IMG/VR virus record: IMGVR_UViG_2737471841_000007
Coordinates: 1-8,605 of that record
Strand: one strand, 5' to 3'
Length of the DNA stretch: 8,605 nucleotides
Source: a virus
Taxonomy: Duplodnaviria; Heunggongvirae; Uroviricota; Caudoviricetes
Positions 1 through 8,605 of the stretch are shown here, one piece after another (position 1 is the first letter of the stretch; every line of letters begins with the position of its first letter). The position numbers were made by a program, and so were the translations under genes. Below the pieces are notes generated by a model. That model was not told the DNA's origin. It made no database searches and worked only from the letters and a program-made list of their open reading frames with translations.

Positions 1-2010
1 TTACCAGTTTGTACTTATAAATAATCCATATATAATCCGTCTATAATTATCCAGTGCATCACTTGGATCTACTGATAGTGCGAATACGGCGCAATCACCT
101 ATACCATCATAGCTATTGGTCATGAGGCCTGAAAACCTAAATGAAGACCCGGCAGTTACTTCTGTAGTATATCTAAGGGCTTCTGTATAACCACCATCTG
201 TAGTTGAGTACACTTCAAATGATGCTGGTTTTAGTAAGGGATTCCCATAATTCTCAAATACTGCGAATCCAGTGAAATATTTTAATAAACTTTTAGTTGT
301 AACAAGTCTGCTAAATGTCTTATTAAAACCTATTCCAGATGTGTCGACTCCAGGTAGTGTTGTTCTCAGTGGGGTTTCTGACGACCCGGTCATTAATCTT
401 ACAGGAGCTGCGCCTCCACCAAGCCAATTATCAATTGTATTAAGGGGATCTTTATATGTTTGTATAGCATTTAAGCACCCTAAAGGGTATTGAACCCGTC
501 CTGGATATCCTCCAACCCCTCCAAATAGAATAGGCTCGGTTCTATAGATTTCACCTTTATCAGCATGATTTACAAGTTCTTTTACTAAGGTTTGGTACTT
601 TACTTCTTTTGCGAGCGTAGTGGTGAAGCCATTGTCCCAGCAGAATGCTGCGAAATCTCCATTGCCTGTTTTTCCGAAAACTCGGGCGGCAGATACAATC
701 TGATCAACATCAAAACAATATGACCCATTTATACCCTCCACTGGATTTGTTTCGAATTGAGAAAAAGTTTGCACGACAGGAATGATTCGCGCAGAACCAG
801 TTACCATCATGCATCCACCAATATCAGTCCTCATTTTACCAAGATCTTTATCAACCCTCTCTTGAAGAGAGCCTGATGAATAGTACATGCTGTAGCTATT
901 GACAAGAAAAACGTCATAATTCCTTGAGAATTTATATTCCCAAGGAGTATTGACCCACATGTAATCTACTGAAAAAAGCTTTTTACTCGTAAGTTCTCTC
1001 AGTGTTGCAATCATTTGGTCCTGATCGGCAACGCTGATTCCTCTACTGGCTGGTTCGTCAACTACGCTATATCCAATGCAGTTTGAAAAACTGTCACACC
1101 GACCAACAATCTCTGCAACAGTTCCTTGACCATGACTAGATTCAATATTTGTATTAATAACCACGTTCAATCCAGCAGATAGGCAATTATTGAGAAGCTT
1201 GGGCATGGTTCCGTCCATGTCGACAGTACCATTATTATCAAAATAGCAGTAATGAATAACGGTATTAAACCCCAAGGACTTTATTCTCAACATTTCACAA
1301 AAATCGTATGCTGTCCCTACGTATATGCCTCGGAAAAAAGCATTATCAGGCTTAGCATAATTTGAGGTAACAACAGCATTTGGTATGCTTATTCTTTGCA
1401 GATCTAAAGTTAGTTCTCCAACATATCTTTGCCCTTTAGTATTTATGATTTTAGTAACTTTATACTTCTTACCCTTGATCCCTATGATTTCTTTGCCAGT
1501 ATCAAATGCAGCCTGAATGGCGTCTGACCAATCATCATCAACAACAAGATTTGCATAATCTTCGATGTAAGCATATACATCACTACGCTTATTAAGGTTG
1601 TCTATATCAGTCTGCTTTGCGGCCCCATTTACTAAATCCACACCACCAGGTGCAGCAAGCTCCTGTCTTAACTGATCAGGATCGTACTTCAGCACATTAG
1701 GAAAATAGAATTGCTGAGAACCATACGCATCATAAACAGCCATAGAATGGCCTTGCACGGTAACGAATTTGGCAATCTGTCCGTTATATACCGGATAACC
1801 AGCAGCGTTAATGATGATTGGTTGAGAAACAGGAACGTGAGAGCCGTCTTCGTTCTCCACATAAACCTGAATCTGGTTTTCAGGATTTACCGGGTCAGTG
1901 TCAATTTTACCTATATAAATTTTACCATTGGCTACGGCTTTAAAAGAACGTGCCATAGTGAAGAGTTGCGAAGGCATTGATACGATCACATTGGCTGTAA
2001 TGTCTGTCAT
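1..2010 (-). CDS. Tailspike protein: P22 gp9-type N-terminal particle-binding domain fused to an unrelated receptor-binding (possibly enzymatic) domain
   Basis: 669-aa ORF, ATG at 2008..2010 with GGAG about 10 nt upstream on the minus strand, stop TAA at 1..3. The first ~115 residues ([42 protein letters not shown]...[15 protein letters not shown]....NVLKYDPDQ) match the P22 tailspike head-binding domain as I recall it. The rest does not resemble the P22 beta-helix sequence. It is the last gene after mnt, as in P22-like late operons. Confidence 0.85.
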
Positions 2011-2145
2011 TTAATTTGCTCCAGATACAAGGAATCACCGCAGCATGGCTACGGTTGGCATTTGTTACATACCGAAACGGTACTATTGTTGATTTGTACA
2101 GTAGGTTTTACGATGCCATTCCACCCAATTGGTGAGGCATCAAGG
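2011..2145. promoter_or_regulatory. Divergent control region between tailspike and mnt, with a candidate operator palindrome
   Basis: 135-bp gap between divergent start codons. It holds the inverted repeat TACCG-aaa-CGGTA (2069..2081), the near-repeats TTGTTACA (2062..2069) and TTTGTACA (2093..2100), and the RBS GGTGAGG (2131..2137) 8 nt before the mnt ATG. I could not find a sigma70 -35/-10 pair with canonical 17-bp spacing by eye, so promoter positions are unassigned. Confidence 0.35.
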
Positions 2146-2406
2146 ATGTACAGTAAATACGACGAGGCGCAGTTTCACTTGAGACTTCCGCATGAACTTC
2201 ACGCGAAAATTAAACAGCGCGCGAAGATGAATAACAGGTCGCTGAACTCAGAGATAATTGCAGCGATTGAAGAATCATTGGCTAAACAAAGCTCTGCATC
2301 AGTTTACATTGACGATGCAGAGCGTATGGCAGAACAACAATCTGATATGGTTAAGAAAATTGTCTTTGATACGCTCAAGAAGCTATATAAAAAAGACAGC
2401 AGATAA
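2146..2406 (+). CDS. mnt: Mnt-like ribbon-helix-helix repressor (Arc/MetJ superfamily)
   Basis: 86 aa from ATG 2146 (MYSKYDEAQFHLRLPHELHAKIKQRAKMNNRSLNSEIIAAIEESLAKQ...DDAERMAEQQSDMVKKIVFDTLKKLYKKDSR). It aligns along its length with P22 Mnt as I recall it (..FNFRMP.EVREKLKFRAEANGRSMNSELLQIVQDALSK...NDAERLADEQSELVKKMVFDTLKDLYKK). The ORF-track start at 2062 is a TTG with no RBS, whereas ATG 2146 has one. The gene is opposite in orientation to the late operon, as in P22 immI. Confidence 0.85.
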   Translation: MYSKYDEAQFHLRLPHELHAKIKQRAKMNNRSLNSEIIAAIEESLAKQSSASVYIDDAERMAEQQSDMVKKIVFDTLKKLYKKDSR

Positions 2407-2495
2407 CCATCCGTTACGGAGGATTTATGCACAGAGATATGCTGAATATTGCGTTCTACATATTTGGTTTTTGCACGTTCCTGGTGTTTGCGAAG

Positions 2496-4775
2496 CTATT
2501 CTGACAGCGCATCAGACTTAGACCCCTGAGTCAGAGCGTTAATGGCCTTTTGTGCCTGCTGCATGGCTTTCTCGAACACTGTTGATCCGCGTGGGGTGTT
2601 TGCCATTCGGAGCATTGCATTTCTGAATGGCTCGCTCTCATAGGCGCGAGTAAGAAGTCCATAGCTTACTGCTGCGCCAGTTGTTGCAGGGTTCATTGCC
2701 GTCCCATACCCAATAATGAACGGGATGGTTTGCTGCCCTGTTGGTGTTGTTACTGCTGCTTTTGCAGCCTGCTGCGTGGATTGCAGGTAGTTTTTCAATC
2801 CTTTCAGATAAGCGGCTTCCTGACCTTTAAATGTGATGCCAGTCTGGTTTTGCAGGATATTAAGCTGCCGAAGGAACTGGTCAGGGGATCCGCCAGATTT
2901 CTCCATCGCCTTTCCAATGATGCCATTGCGCATTTGCTCCCTGCCAACACGACCAACTGAGTTATACAGCGTCTTAATTTCAGATTTGTTCTTGCTGAAT
3001 AGCATGTTGTTGACAACTTCCGGCGTCAGATCGCCTTTCATGAGAACATTCTTCAGCCTGGTATTCTTTAGTTTCGCTGCTTCGTCAGCATAGACGGCAT
3101 TGGCCTGCTGATATTTACGGAGAGTATCGTTGCCAAGATTCTGACCAATGGCGCCATTGATATCGTCGGTCATTGCCTTGTAAACGCGCTGAATGGCAGC
3201 ATCGGAACGGTTTGGTAACACTGGTCGTTCCCCCTTCACGTCCATTCTGAACTGGCTGCGCAGATCGCTTAATTGCTTCAAATCCAGATTTACCGGACCA
3301 TCAGGACCAGCATTGCGAATAAGCTCATCACGATAGGATTGAAGTTTTGAAATCGTCTCGTTATCAGCGACCTTACCAAGCTTCTGCAGGTTAGATATCT
3401 CAGTATCAATCTGCTGAATTGCTCGCACAGGCTGAATGTTTACTCCAGCCATAGCATTCTGAACCTGCTCCAGTCGATTACCGGCAGCACGACGAATTCC
3501 TGATGTTTTCGCTTTAAGGCTGTCAATAACAACTGCCGGATCGTACTCGCCGAATTTATCAGCAAATCTCTGCACCAACTGGCTTCTCGCTTCCTGTTGC
3601 GTTGCTCTCATTCCGCTTGTGCCAGCCAGAGGGATATTTTCTGCTGTAGTCTGCGCCATTTTCCCGACGCGGGAAGTAGGCTGTAACAGGTCTGTGGTGT
3701 GCAGAGGCACTCCTTCACGCTCTGCAAATCTGATAGCTTGCTGCGCTTCTGGTGCAATAGCACCACGAACGCCACGATAAGCAGCGCCTAATCCACGTCC
3801 GGCAGCGTTAATAGCGCCGCCAGCCAGAACGCCAACGCCTAAATCGGTAGCGAGTGCTTCCGCATCATCTTTCGCACTATTTGCAGCAAGTGACCCGACT
3901 GCGTTTTCAGCGAGAAGGCGAGTTGCACCCTGAGCGATTCTACCAGCGAGTGTTGGTGCCTGTGTTGCCGCTCTCTCAATGCCAGCAGGAGTGAGGTAAG
4001 GCAATGCCTCAGCAAATACCCTGCCCTCTGTAGTTTGTGGAGTCAGCGCGCCTTGCTGAAGGCCAAAGTCCTGCTCTAATCCCTGCGTTGTTACTCGTGG
4101 CGCTGGGTGATATGTCCCATCGCCAATTCCGAGTTTACCGCCAGCCCATGCCGCCGCGCTTGTTACAGCATCGGCAACTGATGCAGGTATGTTTGCCACG
4201 TTCACGCCAGCCTGCACCAGTCCGCGACCAGTTTCAGCCGCGGCATTGCCAAGGTCGGAAATGAAACCTCCTTGCTGCTGTGGCGCTGCCTGTGTACTTT
4301 GCTGTACAGGCTGTTGTGTAGCTTGATTCTTCCTAGGGAGGTATTCATCAGCTTGCTGGTTGTGCAGACTCTCCGCATATGCAGTGGCATCGTCAGGATT
4401 GTCGAACATACCAAGATGCTTTCCCGTCCTCATGAAGTTATCAATAGCTTCATCATCAGACATAATGCGACCATCATCACTAACGGTAGGAATCAGCACC
4501 TCTCTACCATCTATATTGGTAGACATGCTCCGCACAGTGCTAATGCTGCCATCAGAGTTTTTAACAACAGGCCGATTGTGAATGTCAATATTACCCTTCT
4601 CTAGCAGACCTCTAGGGTAAGCAGAGTAAAACGCTTGTTTTGCCTGCTCTGCATTTTCTCCGGCTTGCGGGGCAACGACTTCATTGAAGTATTGCTCCTG
4701 AGCCTGCGCTTTTTGTTCTGGTGCTAACGCCTGATACTGTGGAGAGGCGATAACATCTTTCCATGCTTTAGCCAT
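2496..4775 (-). CDS. Putative virion ejection / DNA-transfer protein (P22 gp16-position homolog), intact
   Basis: 759-aa ORF with ATG at 4773..4775, GGGGTGA 5 nt upstream, and start overlapping the upstream stop (TAATG) which suggests translational coupling. It is Ala/Gln/Gly-rich and low-complexity, typical of podovirus ejection proteins, and is the last late gene before mnt and tailspike. Function is assigned by position and composition only; no motif was recognised. Confidence 0.5.
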   Translation of the reverse strand: MAKAWKDVIASPQYQALAPEQKAQAQEQYFNEVVAPQAGENAEQAKQAFYSAYPRGLLEKGNIDIHNRPVVKNSDGSISTVRSMSTNIDGREVLIPTVSDDGRIMSDDEAIDNFMRTGKHLGMFDNPDDATAYAESLHNQQADEYLPRKNQATQQPVQQSTQAAPQQQGGFISDLGNAAAETGRGLVQAGVNVANIPASVADAVTSAAAWAGGKLGIGDGTYHPAPRVTTQGLEQDFGLQQGALTPQTTEGRVFAEALPYLTPAGIERAATQAPTLAGRIAQGATRLLAENAVGSLAANSAKDDAEALATDLGVGVLAGGAINAAGRGLGAAYRGVRGAIAPEAQQAIRFAEREGVPLHTTDLLQPTSRVGKMAQTTAENIPLAGTSGMRATQQEARSQLVQRFADKFGEYDPAVVIDSLKAKTSGIRRAAGNRLEQVQNAMAGVNIQPVRAIQQIDTEISNLQKLGKVADNETISKLQSYRDELIRNAGPDGPVNLDLKQLSDLRSQFRMDVKGERPVLPNRSDAAIQRVYKAMTDDINGAIGQNLGNDTLRKYQQANAVYADEAAKLKNTRLKNVLMKGDLTPEVVNNMLFSKNKSEIKTLYNSVGRVGREQMRNGIIGKAMEKSGGSPDQFLRQLNILQNQTGITFKGQEAAYLKGLKNYLQSTQQAAKAAVTTPTGQQTIPFIIGYGTAMNPATTGAAVSYGLLTRAYESEPFRNAMLRMANTPRGSTVFEKAMQQAQKAINALTQGSKSDALSE

Positions 4776-5398
4776 TAATCACCCCATAGTGAAGAAAAGT
4801 TACTGCCAGTAGTAGATTGTTGCCCTGGCATATTCTGCACCGGCTCCTGATAATCAAACTGTTTTTTAACAGTGCTCAACTTGCTTTCAAGCTGATTTCT
4901 AATCTTTCCGATAGAGTCACGAAAAGCCTTTTCACTCATTTTTGGGCTTAGGGCACCAACCGCATCGGATAATTTTTTACCCTCAGCATCTGAAAGAGCG
5001 CCCATACCCTTCAGGGACTGCACCATAGGGAGGAAAGTTTGAGCTTTAAAGGTGTCGAGCCTTGCTTCAAAGTTAGCCGCATCAGAGCCAGGAACTGTCG
5101 GAAACGCTGAGCGAATTCCTACTGCTTTTGAAAGGCCGGGGCTTTGCTCTATCTCGTTGAGAGAATCAAGCGCGGTGCTGAACGTATCAACTGCACCCTG
5201 AGCGGCGGCCTGCCTGTCAGCGCGGGCTATGTCAGCCTTTTGCCGAACATCTGCCTGTTTCTGCTTTAACTCTTCAAGCTTTAACTGATTGCTTTCTCTG
5301 GCTATCTGTCTGTCCAGAGCCTTTTCTTGTAATTCTGCTCTTTGTATTTCGCGGGAAAGCGCAGCATTCTGTGCGCTGATGTTCTGTCCACGTACAGG
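4775..5398 (-). pseudogene. 3' remnant of an ejection-protein-like gene (gp20-position), no start codon; left side of a deletion junction
   Basis: The reading frame that ends at TAA 4775..4777 stays open upstream for about 207 codons, to an in-frame TGA at 5399..5401. It contains no ATG, GTG or TTG before the ATG at 5026 (the 83-aa track ORF). The product (..[57 protein letters not shown]..) is Ala/Gln-rich and looks coiled-coil-like. It is coupled to the downstream 759-aa gene. Confidence 0.55.
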
Positions 5399-5490
5399 TC
5401 ATTTGTCGCCTCGGTTCTGGCTTCATCGCTCGCCATCCAGTCCGCGTCAAACTTACACAGAATGGAATTGAGTCTGTTTTCGTCGGCCAT
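5302..5490 (-). pseudogene. Portal protein gene remnant: about 33 conserved N-terminal codons, then out-of-frame sequence and a stop
   Basis: ATG at 5488..5490 sits directly after the large-terminase stop (5491..5493), with GGAG 7 nt upstream. [33 protein letters not shown] matches the P22 portal N-terminus as I recall it ([34 protein letters not shown]). After that the ORF reads [29 protein letters not shown] and stops at 62 aa, where a portal should run about 700 aa. The downstream remnant is in a different frame. Confidence 0.7.
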
Positions 5491-6990
5491 TTAAGTTCTC
5501 CGTGCGATGGGCCTGATTGGGGCTGGTATCTTTTTCTCTTTTGGTTTTTTGATGTCGCGCATCATTTTGGCGAAGCGGCGCATCATGTATGCATAGCGAA
5601 CGGCTGAGAGAACGTCGTCGTTAAGCTTGACGATCTTCCCGTTTTCATCACGGTGATAGAGGCGAAACTCCTCAAAGAATGGCTCACAGGTGTTGAATAC
5701 TTTGAAGCGACCATCGAGCATCATGTCGCGCAATTCAGTGATGCCAGGCTCAACAGCATTACCGCCATCAGGCCATGTCGCATGCTCCTGCAACATCATA
5801 AATCCAGCGTCTGCATACTGCCCTTTGAGCTGCTCACCACCGCCCTTCTCGTGCTGGTTTCCGTCATGAGGCCATGCGGTTGGCACTTTATGCGCCCATG
5901 ATTTAACAGCTCCCCATGCCTGAACCGCTGTTTTTTCTTTCGCCTTCCACACGCGTGAAACGTAGATTGTGTCTGCGTCCTTATCCCACCAAAGCTGAAC
6001 CTGAGCCTGTGGGTGATCCCATCCGAAATCCATCCCGCCAATCACGTAGAAGTGATCAGGACACTCGAACGGCTGACACTTAATAGTCTCTTCCGGTATC
6101 TGGAAGATTCGACCACTACCCATCGTAGGAATACCGCGAGCACGCGCCTCTCTCTCATGCTCAGGATAGGATGCGATGATTTGCTCTTTCTGCTCGTCGG
6201 TGTAGTGCTCAGCGTCATAGATGGTCATGTTGACCACTTTCTGCGACTTGCTGGGATTCTTCAGGAACTTGGTAACAACGTCAGACATCCCCATCAGCGG
6301 GGTAAACGTCAGAATTGAGAATTGCCCGTATTTGTTGGTACGGGTAAGACCTTCGCCATAAATGCTGTATGGTGGCTCTTCGTCAAACCACACGCCGTGG
6401 ATTGTGTCACCCTGCCAGCGAGCGCGGCCTTGCGAGTATGGCTTGAAGTAGCAGATTGAAATGCCATCTTCAACGCCATCAGCCGTGTGATGCTTAACCA
6501 GAAGGTGATCAACAAGGTTCGGAAAGAAAGGAGACTTCTTCCAGCTAATAATGTCTTCTTTCGGTATGGAACCGTAGCCAGGCTCATCATTCTCTTCGAT
6601 ACGACCGCACAGGATGCGTTGAGTCGTTTTGGTTACAGTCTCGTTTGTCTCGCCACCAATCCAAAAGACAACGGGCTCATAGAAACGCTTACCTTTCCAC
6701 TCCCCACCATATTTACCATCAGCCGGATAGCCTTTTGTTCCCGGATAACGCCCGGTAAGGTGAAACGCGACTTCAGCAGCCCCAGTAAATGACTTACCAA
6801 GCTGGTTACCAGCCATAAAACAGCGCTCTGGATAGTCATGCCCGGCGTCGATGAACTCACGCTGTTTGCTGTATGGCGTAAATTCATATAGCAGGTGTGT
6901 GTTCCGGTAGTTCTCTTCTTCTTCGAGTAGCTCGAGCAACTCGATTTGCTCTTCGTCGCTCAGGTTATCAAGAATCGCGTCCAGTTCCAC
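5491..6990 (-). CDS. Terminase large subunit (P22 gp2-like)
   Basis: 499-aa ORF with Walker A P-loop AGNQLGKSF near the N-terminus and acidic residues in the C-terminal half consistent with a nuclease domain. Start is GTG at 6988..6990 with AAGGAG 11 nt upstream. It overlaps the small-terminase 3' end by 23 nt. Length and N-terminal sequence match P22 gp2 as I recall it. Confidence 0.9.
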
Positions 6991-7462
6991 GGTTGAATAG
7001 CTCCTTGATACGAGAGCGCCGCTTATCGCGATCTCCCTTATCAGGTGTCACGTCTTCAACTTGCGACTGCTCTTTGAGGCCCAAATCACGGGCGATGATG
7101 TTAGCGTTGAGAAGGTCAGCGGCTGCGCCAGAGAATTTCTGGTCGTAGATGATGTCTTCCGCTCGTGATGTGACGTCAGAAAAACCTTCCATTGACCGGA
7201 AGGTTCCCCATGTTTGTCTGGTGATATCAAGGAAGGTACACAATCCTGAAATAGTCATGGCTCGCATCTTAGGGACATTAGCCTTAATTATTTCTCCCTG
7301 ATATGAAAATACCTTACCCTCCCATAGCGGGTTATCATCAGCCCACTCGAAGTATTCACAACAAGCAGCCCACAGCGCCTCAGGCGATTCGAATTTAGGA
7401 TTTCGCCCATGACTACTGCGGGCCTCCCAAAATCGGTTGCCCTTTGGTGCTGCCATATTCAT
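6968..7462 (-). CDS. Terminase small subunit (P22 gp3-like); true start probably the second ATG at 7454..7456 (162 aa)
   Basis: The product (M)[37 protein letters not shown]...[60 protein letters not shown] matches my recollection of P22 gp3 at both ends. The middle (residues about 40-100) diverges. GTGAG lies 6 nt before the second ATG. Confidence 0.9.
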
Positions 7463-7491
7463 CTCACTTAGTTGTTATTTCAGGCTGAGCA

Positions 7492-7734
7492 TCATGCTCC
7501 GGTAGTGAACAGGTCTAACGCTTCCTTCGATTTACGCACCGCTTCAAATGTGCGGATCGTGATATCTGAATTAGCGCCGCCTGACTGGAAGTGAATTTTG
7601 AATAGCTCAAGCTTCAGTTCGTCAGTGCCAATGAATTGAAATGCTTCTTCTGCGGCTGCGTTCTGGTTCATTACCAGTTTGTAAATCTCTAGCTGGAATT
7701 TCTGTTCTTCAGTCATGGGAATAATCTCTGCCAT
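7492..7734 (-). CDS. Small conserved hypothetical protein in the position of P22 ORF80, just upstream of terS
   Basis: 80-aa ORF with ATG at 7732..7734 and GGAG 6 nt upstream. Same strand and position (between rha and terS) as ORF80 in P22-like phages. No motif recognised. Confidence 0.65.
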   Translation of the reverse strand: MAEIIPMTEEQKFQLEIYKLVMNQNAAAEEAFQFIGTDELKLELFKIHFQSGGANSDITIRTFEAVRKSKEALDLFTTGA

Positions 7735-7755
7735 TGTTGGCTCCGTTTATCCGTT

Positions 7756-7781
7756 AAAAGGGATATCAGTTAAGTTATCCC
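7756..7781 (-). terminator. Weak candidate intrinsic terminator (hairpin plus T-run) just upstream of ORF80
   Basis: On the minus strand: GGGATA-acttaactga-TATCCC followed by TTTT (6-bp stem, 10-nt loop). The stem is short and only half GC, so this is speculative. Confidence 0.2.
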
Positions 7782-8086
7782 GTGTAGGGTATAAGCCATT
7801 ATCGAGACCACTCATTGAATGGCCTCTGCAATAACCGATGTCTTTCCATCAGTCCGCCACCACAAAGAATCTTTTTTGCCATAAGGCAGGAGGTTCATCT
7901 TTCAGTGGCTGCCAGTGTTATTTCCCCACTTACTGGCTTGGGTTGCTTCGTGGTACTGCCGTAACTGGTGGTGCACAGATTTAGTTAAATCTGTTCTCGC
8001 CTGAACTATCTTTTACATACCCGGATTGTGGGGATGTAAATCACGGTTTCATTATCAAGCCCACCCGTAGATGGGCTTTGGAATGG

Positions 8087-8605
8087 TCACTTTGGCAGCC
8101 CGGGGATCGATATTTGCGCCTGCTGCTCAAGCCTTTCGATTCTTGCTATGAGTTGCGGTTTTTTGATCCTGCCCCAGCGGTTCAGCAAGCGTCCTGACAT
8201 ACTGGCAACATCCTTTTCCTTCATGAACTCCAGCATTAACTCGTTGTGCTCTCTTTGGTATGAGTGAGCCATCTCCATCAGCCTGTCACGCATCCAATTA
8301 AATGCTTTGATAAACGCCTCTTTGATGGCGGCAGCTTTTTTGCCGGTAAACGACATGATGATGTACATCGCGCCGTCTTTGGAAATTTCATATTCAACAT
8401 ACTGATTACCCTTGTGTTCATAGGTAACCCGCGAAAAGTTGCTGGTTAGAAATTCATCCGAACAGTCTAGCTTTTCGATTTTCTGAATGATGTGGTGATG
8501 CTGCTTGTCGAAGTAAGCTGCTACCTTGCGGGAGGTTGTGATCACGCGATCACCAGAAACAACCACCATGTCCCGGAAATCGAGATTAGCCAATTGATGA
8601 TTCAT
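8087..8605 (-). CDS. rha: Rha-family phage regulatory protein
   Basis: 172-aa ORF, ATG at the window edge (8603..8605), stop TGA at 8087..8089. The N-terminal segment ..VVVSGDRVITTSRKVAAYFDKQHHHIIQKIEKL.. fits the Rha-domain pattern (V.T.SR.VAE.FGK.H..V.R.I..L). Position upstream of ORF80 and terS matches P22 orf201/rha. Because the start coincides with the window end, no RBS is visible. Confidence 0.7.
   Translation of the reverse strand: MNHQLANLDFRDMVVVSGDRVITTSRKVAAYFDKQHHHIIQKIEKLDCSDEFLTSNFSRVTYEHKGNQYVEYEISKDGAMYIIMSFTGKKAAAIKEAFIKAFNWMRDRLMEMAHSYQREHNELMLEFMKEKDVASMSGRLLNRWGRIKKPQLIARIERLEQQAQISIPGLPK

Follow-up and report, generated by a model that had tools for sequence, protein, structure and literature searches.

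The window, by which we mean the whole 8,605-nt stretch of DNA that was analysed, was found to carry the following features.

1..2010, minus strand: tailspike gene, 669 aa, intact, with a P22-type Head_binding domain (Pfam) at aa 1-113
2146..2406, plus strand: mnt, encoding an Arc/Mnt-family repressor of 86 aa, intact (Pfam Arc and Repressor_Mnt; gene calls in the contig L003)
2496..4775, minus strand: gene for an ejection (DNA transfer) protein of the gp16/Sf6 gp13 type, 759 aa, intact (PHROG 770, 'DNA transfer protein', E 5e-233)
4775..5392, minus strand: remnant of an ejection gene of the gp20/Sf6 gp12 type, C-terminal 205 codons, with no native start
4775-5026, minus strand: 83-aa ORF, the tail of the gp20-type gene read from an internal ATG
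5302..5490, minus strand: 62-aa fusion ORF, a by-product of the deletion, made of 32 portal codons and 30 out-of-frame gp20-type codons
5393..5394: deletion junction, a 2-bp 'TA' common to both parents when the window was aligned jointly with L001 (portal parent) and L002 (gp20-type parent)
5395..5490, minus strand: portal remnant, codons 1-32 only, collinear with the portal start of APC_JM3.2 (L001) and of L011-L020
5491..6990, minus strand: terL, large terminase, 499 aa, GTG start, intact (Terminase_6N and Terminase_6C)
6968..7456, minus strand: terS, small terminase, 162 aa (164 aa from an upstream ATG at 7462), intact (Pfam GP3_package)
7492..7734, minus strand: DUF2560 gene, 80 aa, equivalent to P22 ORF80, whose position it matches (Pfam DUF2560, E 2.6e-42)
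8087..8605, minus strand: gene for a Rha-family regulator, 172 aa (Pfam Phage_pRha and ORF11CD3), the first minus-strand gene of the window, downstream of the lysis cassette (the Rz C-terminus lies just upstream of it in L005)

The genes followed the order of a Lederbergvirus late operon, namely terS (gp3 type), terL, portal, ejection proteins, the immI/mnt position and a tailspike with a head-binding domain. Membership was assigned from Pfam families (GP3_package, Terminase_6N/6C, Repressor_Mnt and Head_binding) and from PHROG 770 and 2534. Nucleotide identity to P22, Sf6, APC_JM3.2 and others ranged from 88 to 98% and, leaving aside a single gap, the window was collinear with the ordinary Lederbergvirus genomes APC_JM3.2, vB_EcoP-720R6, Sf6 and P22. 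When intact members were considered (P22, Sf6, APC_JM3.2, vB_EcoP-720R6 and IME10), the right arm was 96-98% and the left arm 95-96% identical. The tailspike end adjoined a cargo gene, followed by the chromosomal genes ybhB-bioA-bioB. The window very probably represents the end of the late operon in a P22-like (Lederbergvirus) prophage residing in one E. coli lineage. The contigs that carry the deletion junction all stop within 0.6 kb upstream of the Rha gene or earlier (just upstream of Rha or DUF2560), and the integrase, immunity, replication and antiterminator genes and most of the lysis cassette lie beyond the ends of all of them.

The gap corresponded to a deletion with its junction at 5393/5394, where BLAST against intact relatives placed a 2-bp TA overlap and where portal codon 33 is joined to approximately codon 226 of the gp20-type ejection gene. 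The intact prophage L015 has these two endpoints 9,512 bp apart; about 9.5 kb was thus lost. According to the gene list of L015, the genes lost were those for the portal, scaffold, coat, gp4, gp10, gp26, gp14, gp7 and half of gp20 (the N-terminal half), and it is by their absence that the window is unlike intact Lederbergvirus genomes. The portal remnant showed 0-2 mismatches in 96 nt relative to APC_JM3.2 and L011-L020. The gp20-type remnant matched positions 230-435 of the 435 in PHROG 2534 (E 7e-91) and was 97.8% identical to positions 6745-7509 of L002. The 62-aa fusion ORF matched no family and served as an exact-match tag for finding other junction-bearing contigs. A single illegitimate-recombination event at the 2-bp microhomology would have removed the whole ~9.5 kb, which begins at portal codon 33 and ends midway through the gp20-type gene.

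With the head and tail-hub genes deleted, no procapsid or tail hub can be built, and the element is therefore defective for virion production. Since the virion module (portal, scaffold, P22-type coat and gp4/gp10/gp26) is entirely absent, we consider the element to be a defective derivative rather than a functional member of Lederbergvirus; it combines chromosomal integration with missing essential virion genes, as defective or cryptic prophages do. The genes terS, terL and mnt and those for the gp16-type protein and the tailspike are intact, as the deletion did not extend to them. ORFs, domains and BLAST agreed with an earlier, sequence-only reading of this DNA in that these five genes are intact and the head module is missing. 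That reading had described every flanking ORF as full length, which held for the five genes and did not hold for the portal and gp20-type genes, truncated at the edges of the deletion. Its term 'capsid-less' was right as to the head genes and understated the loss, as the tail hub (gp4, gp10 and gp26), gp14 and gp7 had gone as well. The interval it had flagged, 5491-7462, covers exactly terL and terS; the junction lies 97 nt to the left, outside that range.

The junction was not present in 5,426 complete E. coli genomes, in which a 300-nt query matched one half at a time only, and exact scans with junction 24-26-mers gave zero matches in GTDB species representatives, JGI metagenomes and IMG/VR. 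It was found on five draft or Logan contigs (JUDJ01000044, RNPZ01000038, SRR29037622, SRR8095932 and SRR2239585), all of them 100.000% identical to the window, with identity between contigs extending over up to 12.3 kb; some of these may be one isolate sequenced twice. Two NCBI contigs (L003 and L004) also had an identical chromosomal flank of 4.7 kb, ybhB-bioA-bioB, and therefore belong to the same lineage. This flank differs by about 1.3% from that of another E. coli lineage, CUPF06. Flank identity in the two NCBI contigs, together with the absence of the junction from the other collections searched, may reflect vertical inheritance, and the junction was found only in one bacterial clone, the flank evidence being that of the two NCBI contigs.

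Overall, we consider, with a probability of roughly 85%, that the element is an ordinary defective P22-like prophage that underwent one recent, ordinary deletion. Too little time would have passed since the deletion for point mutations to appear in the surviving genes. Taking clock rates typical of E. coli, we estimated that the lack of any SNP in 12 kb limits the separation of the isolates to about 10^2-10^3 years or less, and in about 7 kb of neutral E. coli coding DNA the first disrupting mutation was estimated to arise after some 10^3-10^4 years. The undeleted progenitor was not found, as exact-sequence look-ups of the 759-aa protein and of the tailspike returned only the deleted clone; 'recent' therefore rests on absent divergence and not on a dated ancestor. 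With this meaning, the deletion is inferred to be evolutionarily recent.

The ratio dN/dS was 0.078 for terL versus P22, 0.039 for the gp16-type gene and 0.04-0.17 for the tailspike gene. When terL was compared with ten copies encoding the exact same protein, 20-41 synonymous and 0 non-synonymous differences were counted, dN being 0 by construction in comparators picked by exact protein identity. Low dN/dS was rejected as evidence of maintenance: comparisons outside the junction copies measure pre-deletion history and, with no substitution since the deletion, dN/dS cannot test maintenance. The sequence-only reading had proposed this ratio as a check and, although the values were indeed far below 1, they are uninformative in that they reflect a history inside functional phages. 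It had also expected frameshifts to accumulate after an old deletion, a premise of little power given the estimated waiting time of 10^3-10^4 years. Recurrence of the junction across unrelated strains, which it had named as an argument for a maintained element, was not seen, the five identical contigs being the only carriers; this restriction favours simple recent decay, which it had regarded as the most economical explanation, calling helper dependence and a free-depolymerase role speculative. The locus provides a clean case in which intact ORFs beside a deletion say nothing on maintenance if no time has elapsed since, and in which low dN/dS versus intact relatives is likewise silent.

Among the surviving genes, terL encodes a Walker A motif, AGNQLGKS, which fits [AG]xxxxGK[ST]; TerL gave no NCBIfam match. 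The exact TerL protein was recorded in 11,661 index blocks and, in all ten of the places listed, it was followed by an intact 721-aa portal gene and a full head module. The TerS protein was identical in amino-acid sequence to the terS product of at least five intact prophages (L011, L013, L015, L016 and L020). Both proteins being identical to copies from intact prophages, they are neither decayed nor specialised. The terL type was carried by 253 complete genomes, in 199 of which a portal gene of the same type adjoined; the remaining genomes had a terL allele of about 91%, in which similarity ended at nt 1456, and a different portal type. Compared with P22 gp3, 134 of the 162 residues of TerS were identical, with a divergent central segment. 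A P22 pac sequence used as query had no match within 3 mismatches; when P22 gene 3 was aligned, the pac-equivalent 22-mer was identical at 15 of its 22 positions and fell in the variable central part of terS. Judging from these alignments, terS and its pac region appear to be an allele different from that of P22 and common to intact prophages. The retention of the terminase genes would be incidental, with no sign of their being kept for a purpose.

The 759-aa gp16-type protein is unlike that of intact Lederbergvirus in having an extra ~94 aa, present as an insertion of ~94 codons in the N-terminal part (DNA 4306-4628). Sf6-type homologues covered only 85% of the protein, aa ~50-168 were matched in no phage record, and NCBIfam gave no match. 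An intact 759-aa ORF with the same architecture was observed in E. coli Tig228 (omega 0.039).

In the tailspike, PDB matches were limited to the N-terminal ~118 aa and the receptor-binding part matched no family, with at best 37% identity in 50,697 phage records; neither the tailspike nor the product of the 374-aa gene downstream had an NCBIfam match. Full-length copies of the 669-aa tailspike were found in LCP17S3_I1, CUPF06 and MFDS1001074. The host could conceivably benefit from the tailspike (as a released O-antigen or capsule depolymerase), from the ejection protein or from a surface-modification cargo gene, with terS and terL riding along in a domesticated remnant, an explanation that we consider unlikely. 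In its favour, the receptor-binding part was found at 99.3% identity or more in 16 of the 5,426 complete genomes, all four copies inspected were in defective prophages of differing structure, and the tailspike and downstream cargo gene differed from those of CUPF06 by 1 nt in about 3 kb, against 1.3% in the chromosomal flanks. Moreover, incomplete prophages are enriched in tail-fibre genes (PMC7744054), and the tailspike of the O104:H4 remnant is functional (PMC3303846). However, ascertainment was biased, as most remnants were found with a tailspike or left-arm query and so had to retain the tailspike. The tailspike N-terminus was missing from the match in 12 of the 16 genomes, and next to the truncated tailspike gene of UPEC132, the only one of these inspected, lay an IS3-family element. 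The receptor-binding part showed 8 synonymous and 8 non-synonymous differences in three non-independent comparisons, too few to test for selection. Located at the end of the prophage, next to conversion genes and the att site, the tailspike is spared by internal deletions through its position alone, and nothing in this explanation is specific to terS and terL, the feature originally flagged. The uncharacterised receptor-binding domain, whose inspected copies were all in defective prophages, may interest those who mine prophage remnants for depolymerases.

It is markedly less probable that the remnant depends on a helper, its own TerS and TerL packaging its own DNA, from a pac site inside terS, into the procapsids of a co-resident or superinfecting P22-like phage, with the remnant tailspike mounted on the particles. 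In its favour, a genome shorter than normal can still be packaged by the P22 headful mechanism, both terminase genes and the stretch corresponding to the P22 pac site have survived intact, and a TerL identical to that of common intact prophages would fit their portals. The Logan contig from SRR2239585 (L021) ends 28 nt past the junction, at a point where a k=31 graph would be expected to branch given a second portal 5' end, which would fit a possible co-resident P22-like phage in that sample. Against this, the other four of the five contigs cross the portal remnant uninterrupted, with no second similar copy in those genomes. TerS and TerL are those of ordinary intact phages, with no redirected specificity, and would be supplied in the same form by any compatible helper. 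The gene arrangement is simply that of a Lederbergvirus late operon, interrupted by one 2-bp junction that looks random and that left behind a nonsense fusion ORF and two truncated genes, and none of the seven other independent remnants had an intact terL. This explanation is thus unsupported. Were it true, which we judge very improbable, the resident pac site, TerS and TerL would, in the presence of a compatible P22-like phage, start headful packaging from the chromosome into helper procapsids and spread the remnant; the adjacent bio-uvrB region would also be spread, as in lateral transduction, because packaging would run toward the tailspike end, and helper particles could carry the unusual tailspike.

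Phage satellites (SaPI/PICI, capsid-forming PICI, P4-like elements and PLE) are compact, recur across strains and, in some cases, have their own small terminase; they carry a dedicated integrase, a helper-sensing repressor, a replication module and genes for packaging redirection or capsid remodelling. The window element resembles SaPI/PICI, P4-like and PLE satellites in that it would need a helper for virion proteins. In contrast to them, its sequence is that of an ordinary phage late operon that has undergone one seemingly accidental deletion, and its layout is neither compact nor dedicated. Its TerS is not distinct from helper-type TerS, both terminase proteins being identical to those of intact prophages. 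No conserved compact element recurred in unrelated strains among the 5,426 genomes and three other collections, the junction being confined to identical contigs.

An assembly artefact, in which two contigs were mis-joined, was given a negligible probability: the sources were draft assemblies with short contigs, but several sequencing runs and at least two assembly pipelines yielded the same junction, on five contigs in all, and its parents have only 2 bp in common, far under the overlap or k-mer size of any assembler, which rules out a repeat-driven mis-join.

The defective prophage was also compared with seven other P22-like remnants of E. coli: CUPF06 (same att site), ETEC4068, Tig228, isolate 48, MFDS1001074, LCP17S3_I1 and the UPEC132 type. 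Their deletion endpoints differed and none had an intact terL; among the eight, the window element alone had both terminase genes intact. Genes for packaging, replication and release are generally missing from incomplete prophages (PMC7744054). In the O104:H4 outbreak strain, a P22-like remnant has a tailspike that is functional, the complete prophage being present in the relative 55989 (PMC3303846). The window element resembled such cryptic prophages (the O104:H4 remnant and the argW KplE1/CPS-53-type remnants of ETEC4068, Tig228 and isolate 48) in its Lederbergvirus gene order, in the internal deletion of virion-assembly genes, in the intact Mnt and head-binding-domain tailspike at the prophage end, and in a deletion confined to one lineage, with relatives of the flanking genes in complete prophages. 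Unlike the argW-type remnants, it lies at ybhB-bio and has unique endpoints (one at portal codon 33, the other midway along the gp20-type gene). As one more defective P22-like prophage, mapped to the base, it matters little. Head modules were lost repeatedly and independently in the P22-like prophages of E. coli.

The window most probably carries an ordinary, evolutionarily recent deletion of the head module of a P22-like prophage in one E. coli clone, judging from the sequence comparisons. Recent decay, which the sequence-only reading had preferred, was supported, as the junction was found in what seems to be one clone and the retained genes were unchanged since the deletion. The ORFs listed in that reading were all found with open reading frames, and the range it had singled out, 5491-7462, corresponds exactly to terL and terS. 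The genes of the window are as follows; the sequence upstream of the Rha-family gene covers only the last 83 codons of Rz.

8605-8087, minus strand: Rha-family gene
7734-7492, minus strand: DUF2560 gene
7456-6968, minus strand: terS, 162 aa, GP3_package
6990-5491, minus strand: terL, 499 aa, Terminase_6N and 6C, Walker A AGNQLGKS
5490-5302, minus strand: 62-aa ORF, portal codons running out of frame
5026-4775, minus strand: 83-aa ORF, tail of the gp20-type gene, internal ATG
4775-2496, minus strand: 759-aa gp16/Sf6-gp13-type 'DNA transfer' protein, PHROG 770
2146-2406, plus strand: mnt
2010-1, minus strand: tailspike, 669 aa, P22-type head-binding domain

When compared with phage records by megablast, the window splits at 5393/5394. 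The right arm (5393-8605) matched Lederbergvirus genomes at the terminase genes and the start of the portal (for example APC_JM3.2, 96.4%), and the left arm (1663-5394) matched them at the ejection genes, mnt and the start of the tailspike (for example vB_EcoP-720R6, 95.4%; Sf6, 95.0%). In a three-way alignment, the parents had the dinucleotide TA alone in common at the join. The portal remnant comprises 32 codons, whose out-of-frame run into the gp20-type gene forms the 62-aa ORF, and only the C-terminal 205 codons of this gp20/Sf6-gp12-type ejection gene were kept (PHROG 2534, positions 230-435 of 435). In L015, an intact prophage with matches to both arms, positions 11598 and 21110 correspond to the two endpoints; the 9,512 bp between them contain portal, scaffold, coat, a small ORF, gp4, gp10, gp26, gp14, gp7 and the gp20-type gene up to codon ~225. 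The element, described from its sequence as capsid-less, thus has neither capsid nor portal, and the tail hub, where a tailspike attaches, is missing in full. The junction is real and not a misassembly, since it was present across several assemblers and runs with just a 2-bp overlap.

The junction was absent from 5,426 complete E. coli genomes searched with the whole window and with a 300-nt junction query, no place spanning more than one half, and was not found in 185,579 species-representative genomes, in JGI metagenome contigs or in IMG/VR. Looking up the exact sequence of the 62-aa fusion ORF gave four contigs, namely JUDJ01000044 (GCA_000798295.1), RNPZ01000038 (GCA_003773445.1), and Logan contigs from SRR29037622 and SRR8095932; a fifth junction-spanning contig, from SRR2239585, was reached via the 759-aa protein. 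All five, which are not necessarily separate isolates, were 100.000% identical to the window. The two NCBI contigs (L003 and L004) shared 12,334 bp without a difference, 4.7 kb of which is the ybhB-bioA-bioB part of the chromosome; identity there is informative because the flank differs by ~1.3% from that of E. coli CUPF06, and the two contigs most probably represent one lineage. Recurrence across unrelated strains, which would have argued for a maintained element, was not observed among these five identical contigs, and the junction looks restricted to an apparent single clone. The NCBI-derived gene calls of L003 and L004 omit both the 759-aa gene and the gp20 remnant, and the tailspike is called as 430 aa in L004, whereas the 759-aa and 669-aa products are called on the Logan contigs; as the DNA is 100% identical, this mismatch lies in annotation, not in sequence.

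The exact TerL protein was recorded in 11,661 index blocks; in all 10 places listed, an intact 721-aa portal came next, together with a complete head module. Relative to these ten, terL exhibited 20-41 synonymous and 0 non-synonymous differences, a dN of 0 by construction, since they were picked by protein identity; against P22, which was not picked in this way, omega was 0.078. TerS was identical in amino acids to the TerS of five intact prophages. The 759-aa protein is a natural full-length variant: a remnant in E. coli Tig228 has an intact ORF of equal length (759 aa) and architecture, against which omega was 0.039, and the tailspike was full length by comparison with 669-aa copies in three other genomes (omega 0.04-0.17). 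The dN/dS comparison proposed earlier thus gave ratios far below 1, but these reflect evolution within functional phages before the deletion and say nothing on maintenance; because the junction-bearing copies are identical at every base, they offer no change after the deletion to measure. The intact ORFs had been held against an old deletion. With an E. coli clock assumed at 10^-7 to 10^-6 substitutions per site per year and a disrupting share of mutations of at most one fifth, the first stop or frameshift in ~7.3 kb of coding DNA would be expected after 10^3-10^4 years, in order of magnitude. Given this estimated wait, the intact ORFs rule out just a very old deletion and carry little further weight.

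The 759-aa protein has ~94 more N-terminal residues than the 665-aa Sf6 gp13 type. The extra segment (window 4306-4628, aa ~50-168), which contains GNIDIHNRPVV...STVRSMS, was not covered by any phage record (best coverage 85%) and had no Pfam or NCBIfam match.

The searches also brought up seven further P22-like remnants of E. coli. Their deletions are independent and have different endpoints, and none of the seven had an intact terL.

CUPF06, same ybhB site, tailspike nearly identical: truncated terL of another (PBSX) type, joined to gp14; gp16 also truncated
ETEC4068 and relatives, argW: terS fragment joined to gp4 fragment
Tig228, argW: lysozyme, then directly gp20, gp16, mnt and tailspike
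Isolate 48, argW: terL up to codon ~34, then the gp16 C-terminus
MFDS1001074, dacD-sbcB: early genes running straight into mnt and tailspike
LCP17S3_I1, dacD-sbcB: gp16 interrupted by IS elements
UPEC132 type, dacD-sbcB: truncated tailspike, adjoining an IS3-family element

Retention of both terminase genes in the window thus appears to be an isolated case, set by the position of the left endpoint. The terL type of the window was present in 253 complete genomes, with a same-type portal adjacent in 199; the others carried a ~91%-identical allele whose similarity ends at nt 1456, where a portal of another type begins to differ rather than a deletion.

CUPF06 (L009 11500-22000, compared with L003 6523-13635) is a second lineage with a P22-like prophage at the ybhB site. 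The C-terminal part of its tailspike and the downstream cargo gene had 1 mismatch in ~3 kb relative to the window lineage, whereas its terminase is of another type and its head-module deletion (terL fragment-gp14) is independent. The argW remnant of Tig228 (L010 9213-21000) has the order intS, acyltransferase, tailspike, HNH, mnt, gp16 (759 aa), gp20, lysozyme, holin and torI, the gp20 start overlapping the lysozyme stop. That of isolate 48 (L027 1600-6845) consists of intact terS, ~34 terL codons fused to the last ~70 gp16 codons, mnt, tailspike and intS. These two compact remnants show further independent head-module losses.

The evidence for an alternative, selective retention of the tailspike in such remnants, is suggestive but biased. 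Its receptor-binding part (window 1-1650, aa ~120-669) was found at no less than 99.3% identity in 16 of the 5,426 complete E. coli genomes, and the four copies inspected all sat in defective prophages. However, the N-terminal head-binding part was absent from 12 of the 16 matches, most remnants came from searches with these very sequences, and the tailspike, next to conversion genes at the end of the prophage, has a position that internal deletions spare. Incomplete prophages lose genes for packaging, replication and release, and tail-fibre genes are enriched in them (PMC7744054), and the O104:H4 outbreak strain carries a P22-like remnant with a working tailspike, its relative 55989 having the entire prophage (PMC3303846); both reports agree with tailspike retention as well as with simple decay. 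The receptor-binding part had no Pfam or PDB match, PHROG 8280 alone entering it, to aa 260, and no phage record had this domain above 37% identity; the nearest phage relatives (26-37%) were Dickeya phage Monomax, Acinetobacter phage tailspikes and a putative capsule depolymerase.

Outside the window, between tailspike and ybhB, a 374/375-aa gene on the opposite strand (L003 8949-10073) occupies the place where P22-like phages usually have O-antigen modification genes. Pfam, PHROG and NCBIfam gave no match for it; in CUPF06 and LCP17S3_I1, a region nearly identical to it is annotated as coding for a hypothetical protein of 314 aa.

Nothing specific was found in favour of a helper-dependent element. 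Its own TerS helps a satellite only if packaging is redirected; here ordinary phages have identical TerS and TerL, and a compatible helper would supply the same proteins and recognise the same pac site. The junction, which breaks two genes and creates a nonsense fusion ORF, looks accidental. A small hint in favour of a helper, namely of another P22-like portal gene, came from the SRR2239585 contig (L021), which ends at window 5422, its last 31-mer comprising 1 gp20-side base and 30 portal bases; judging from contig ends, a k=31 graph would branch there if the run held another portal 5' end. This end does not reflect a mixture of deleted and undeleted copies, because the contig is unbroken through the gp20-type side, and the other four contigs pass straight through the portal remnant. 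The ends of the SRR8095932 contig (L006; window 1997 and 7523) are consistent with that run holding another P22-like tailspike start and another DUF2560 allele. Over its N- and C-terminal thirds, terS is nearly identical to its P22 counterpart. Aligned with the P22 gene 3 segment GAAGATTTATCTGAAGTCGTTA, the pac site of the P22 literature, the 22-mer at window 7168-7189 (minus strand, inside terS), GAAGGTTTTTCTGACGTCACAT, was identical at 15 of 22 positions; it sits in the divergent central third, and this allele is common to intact prophages.
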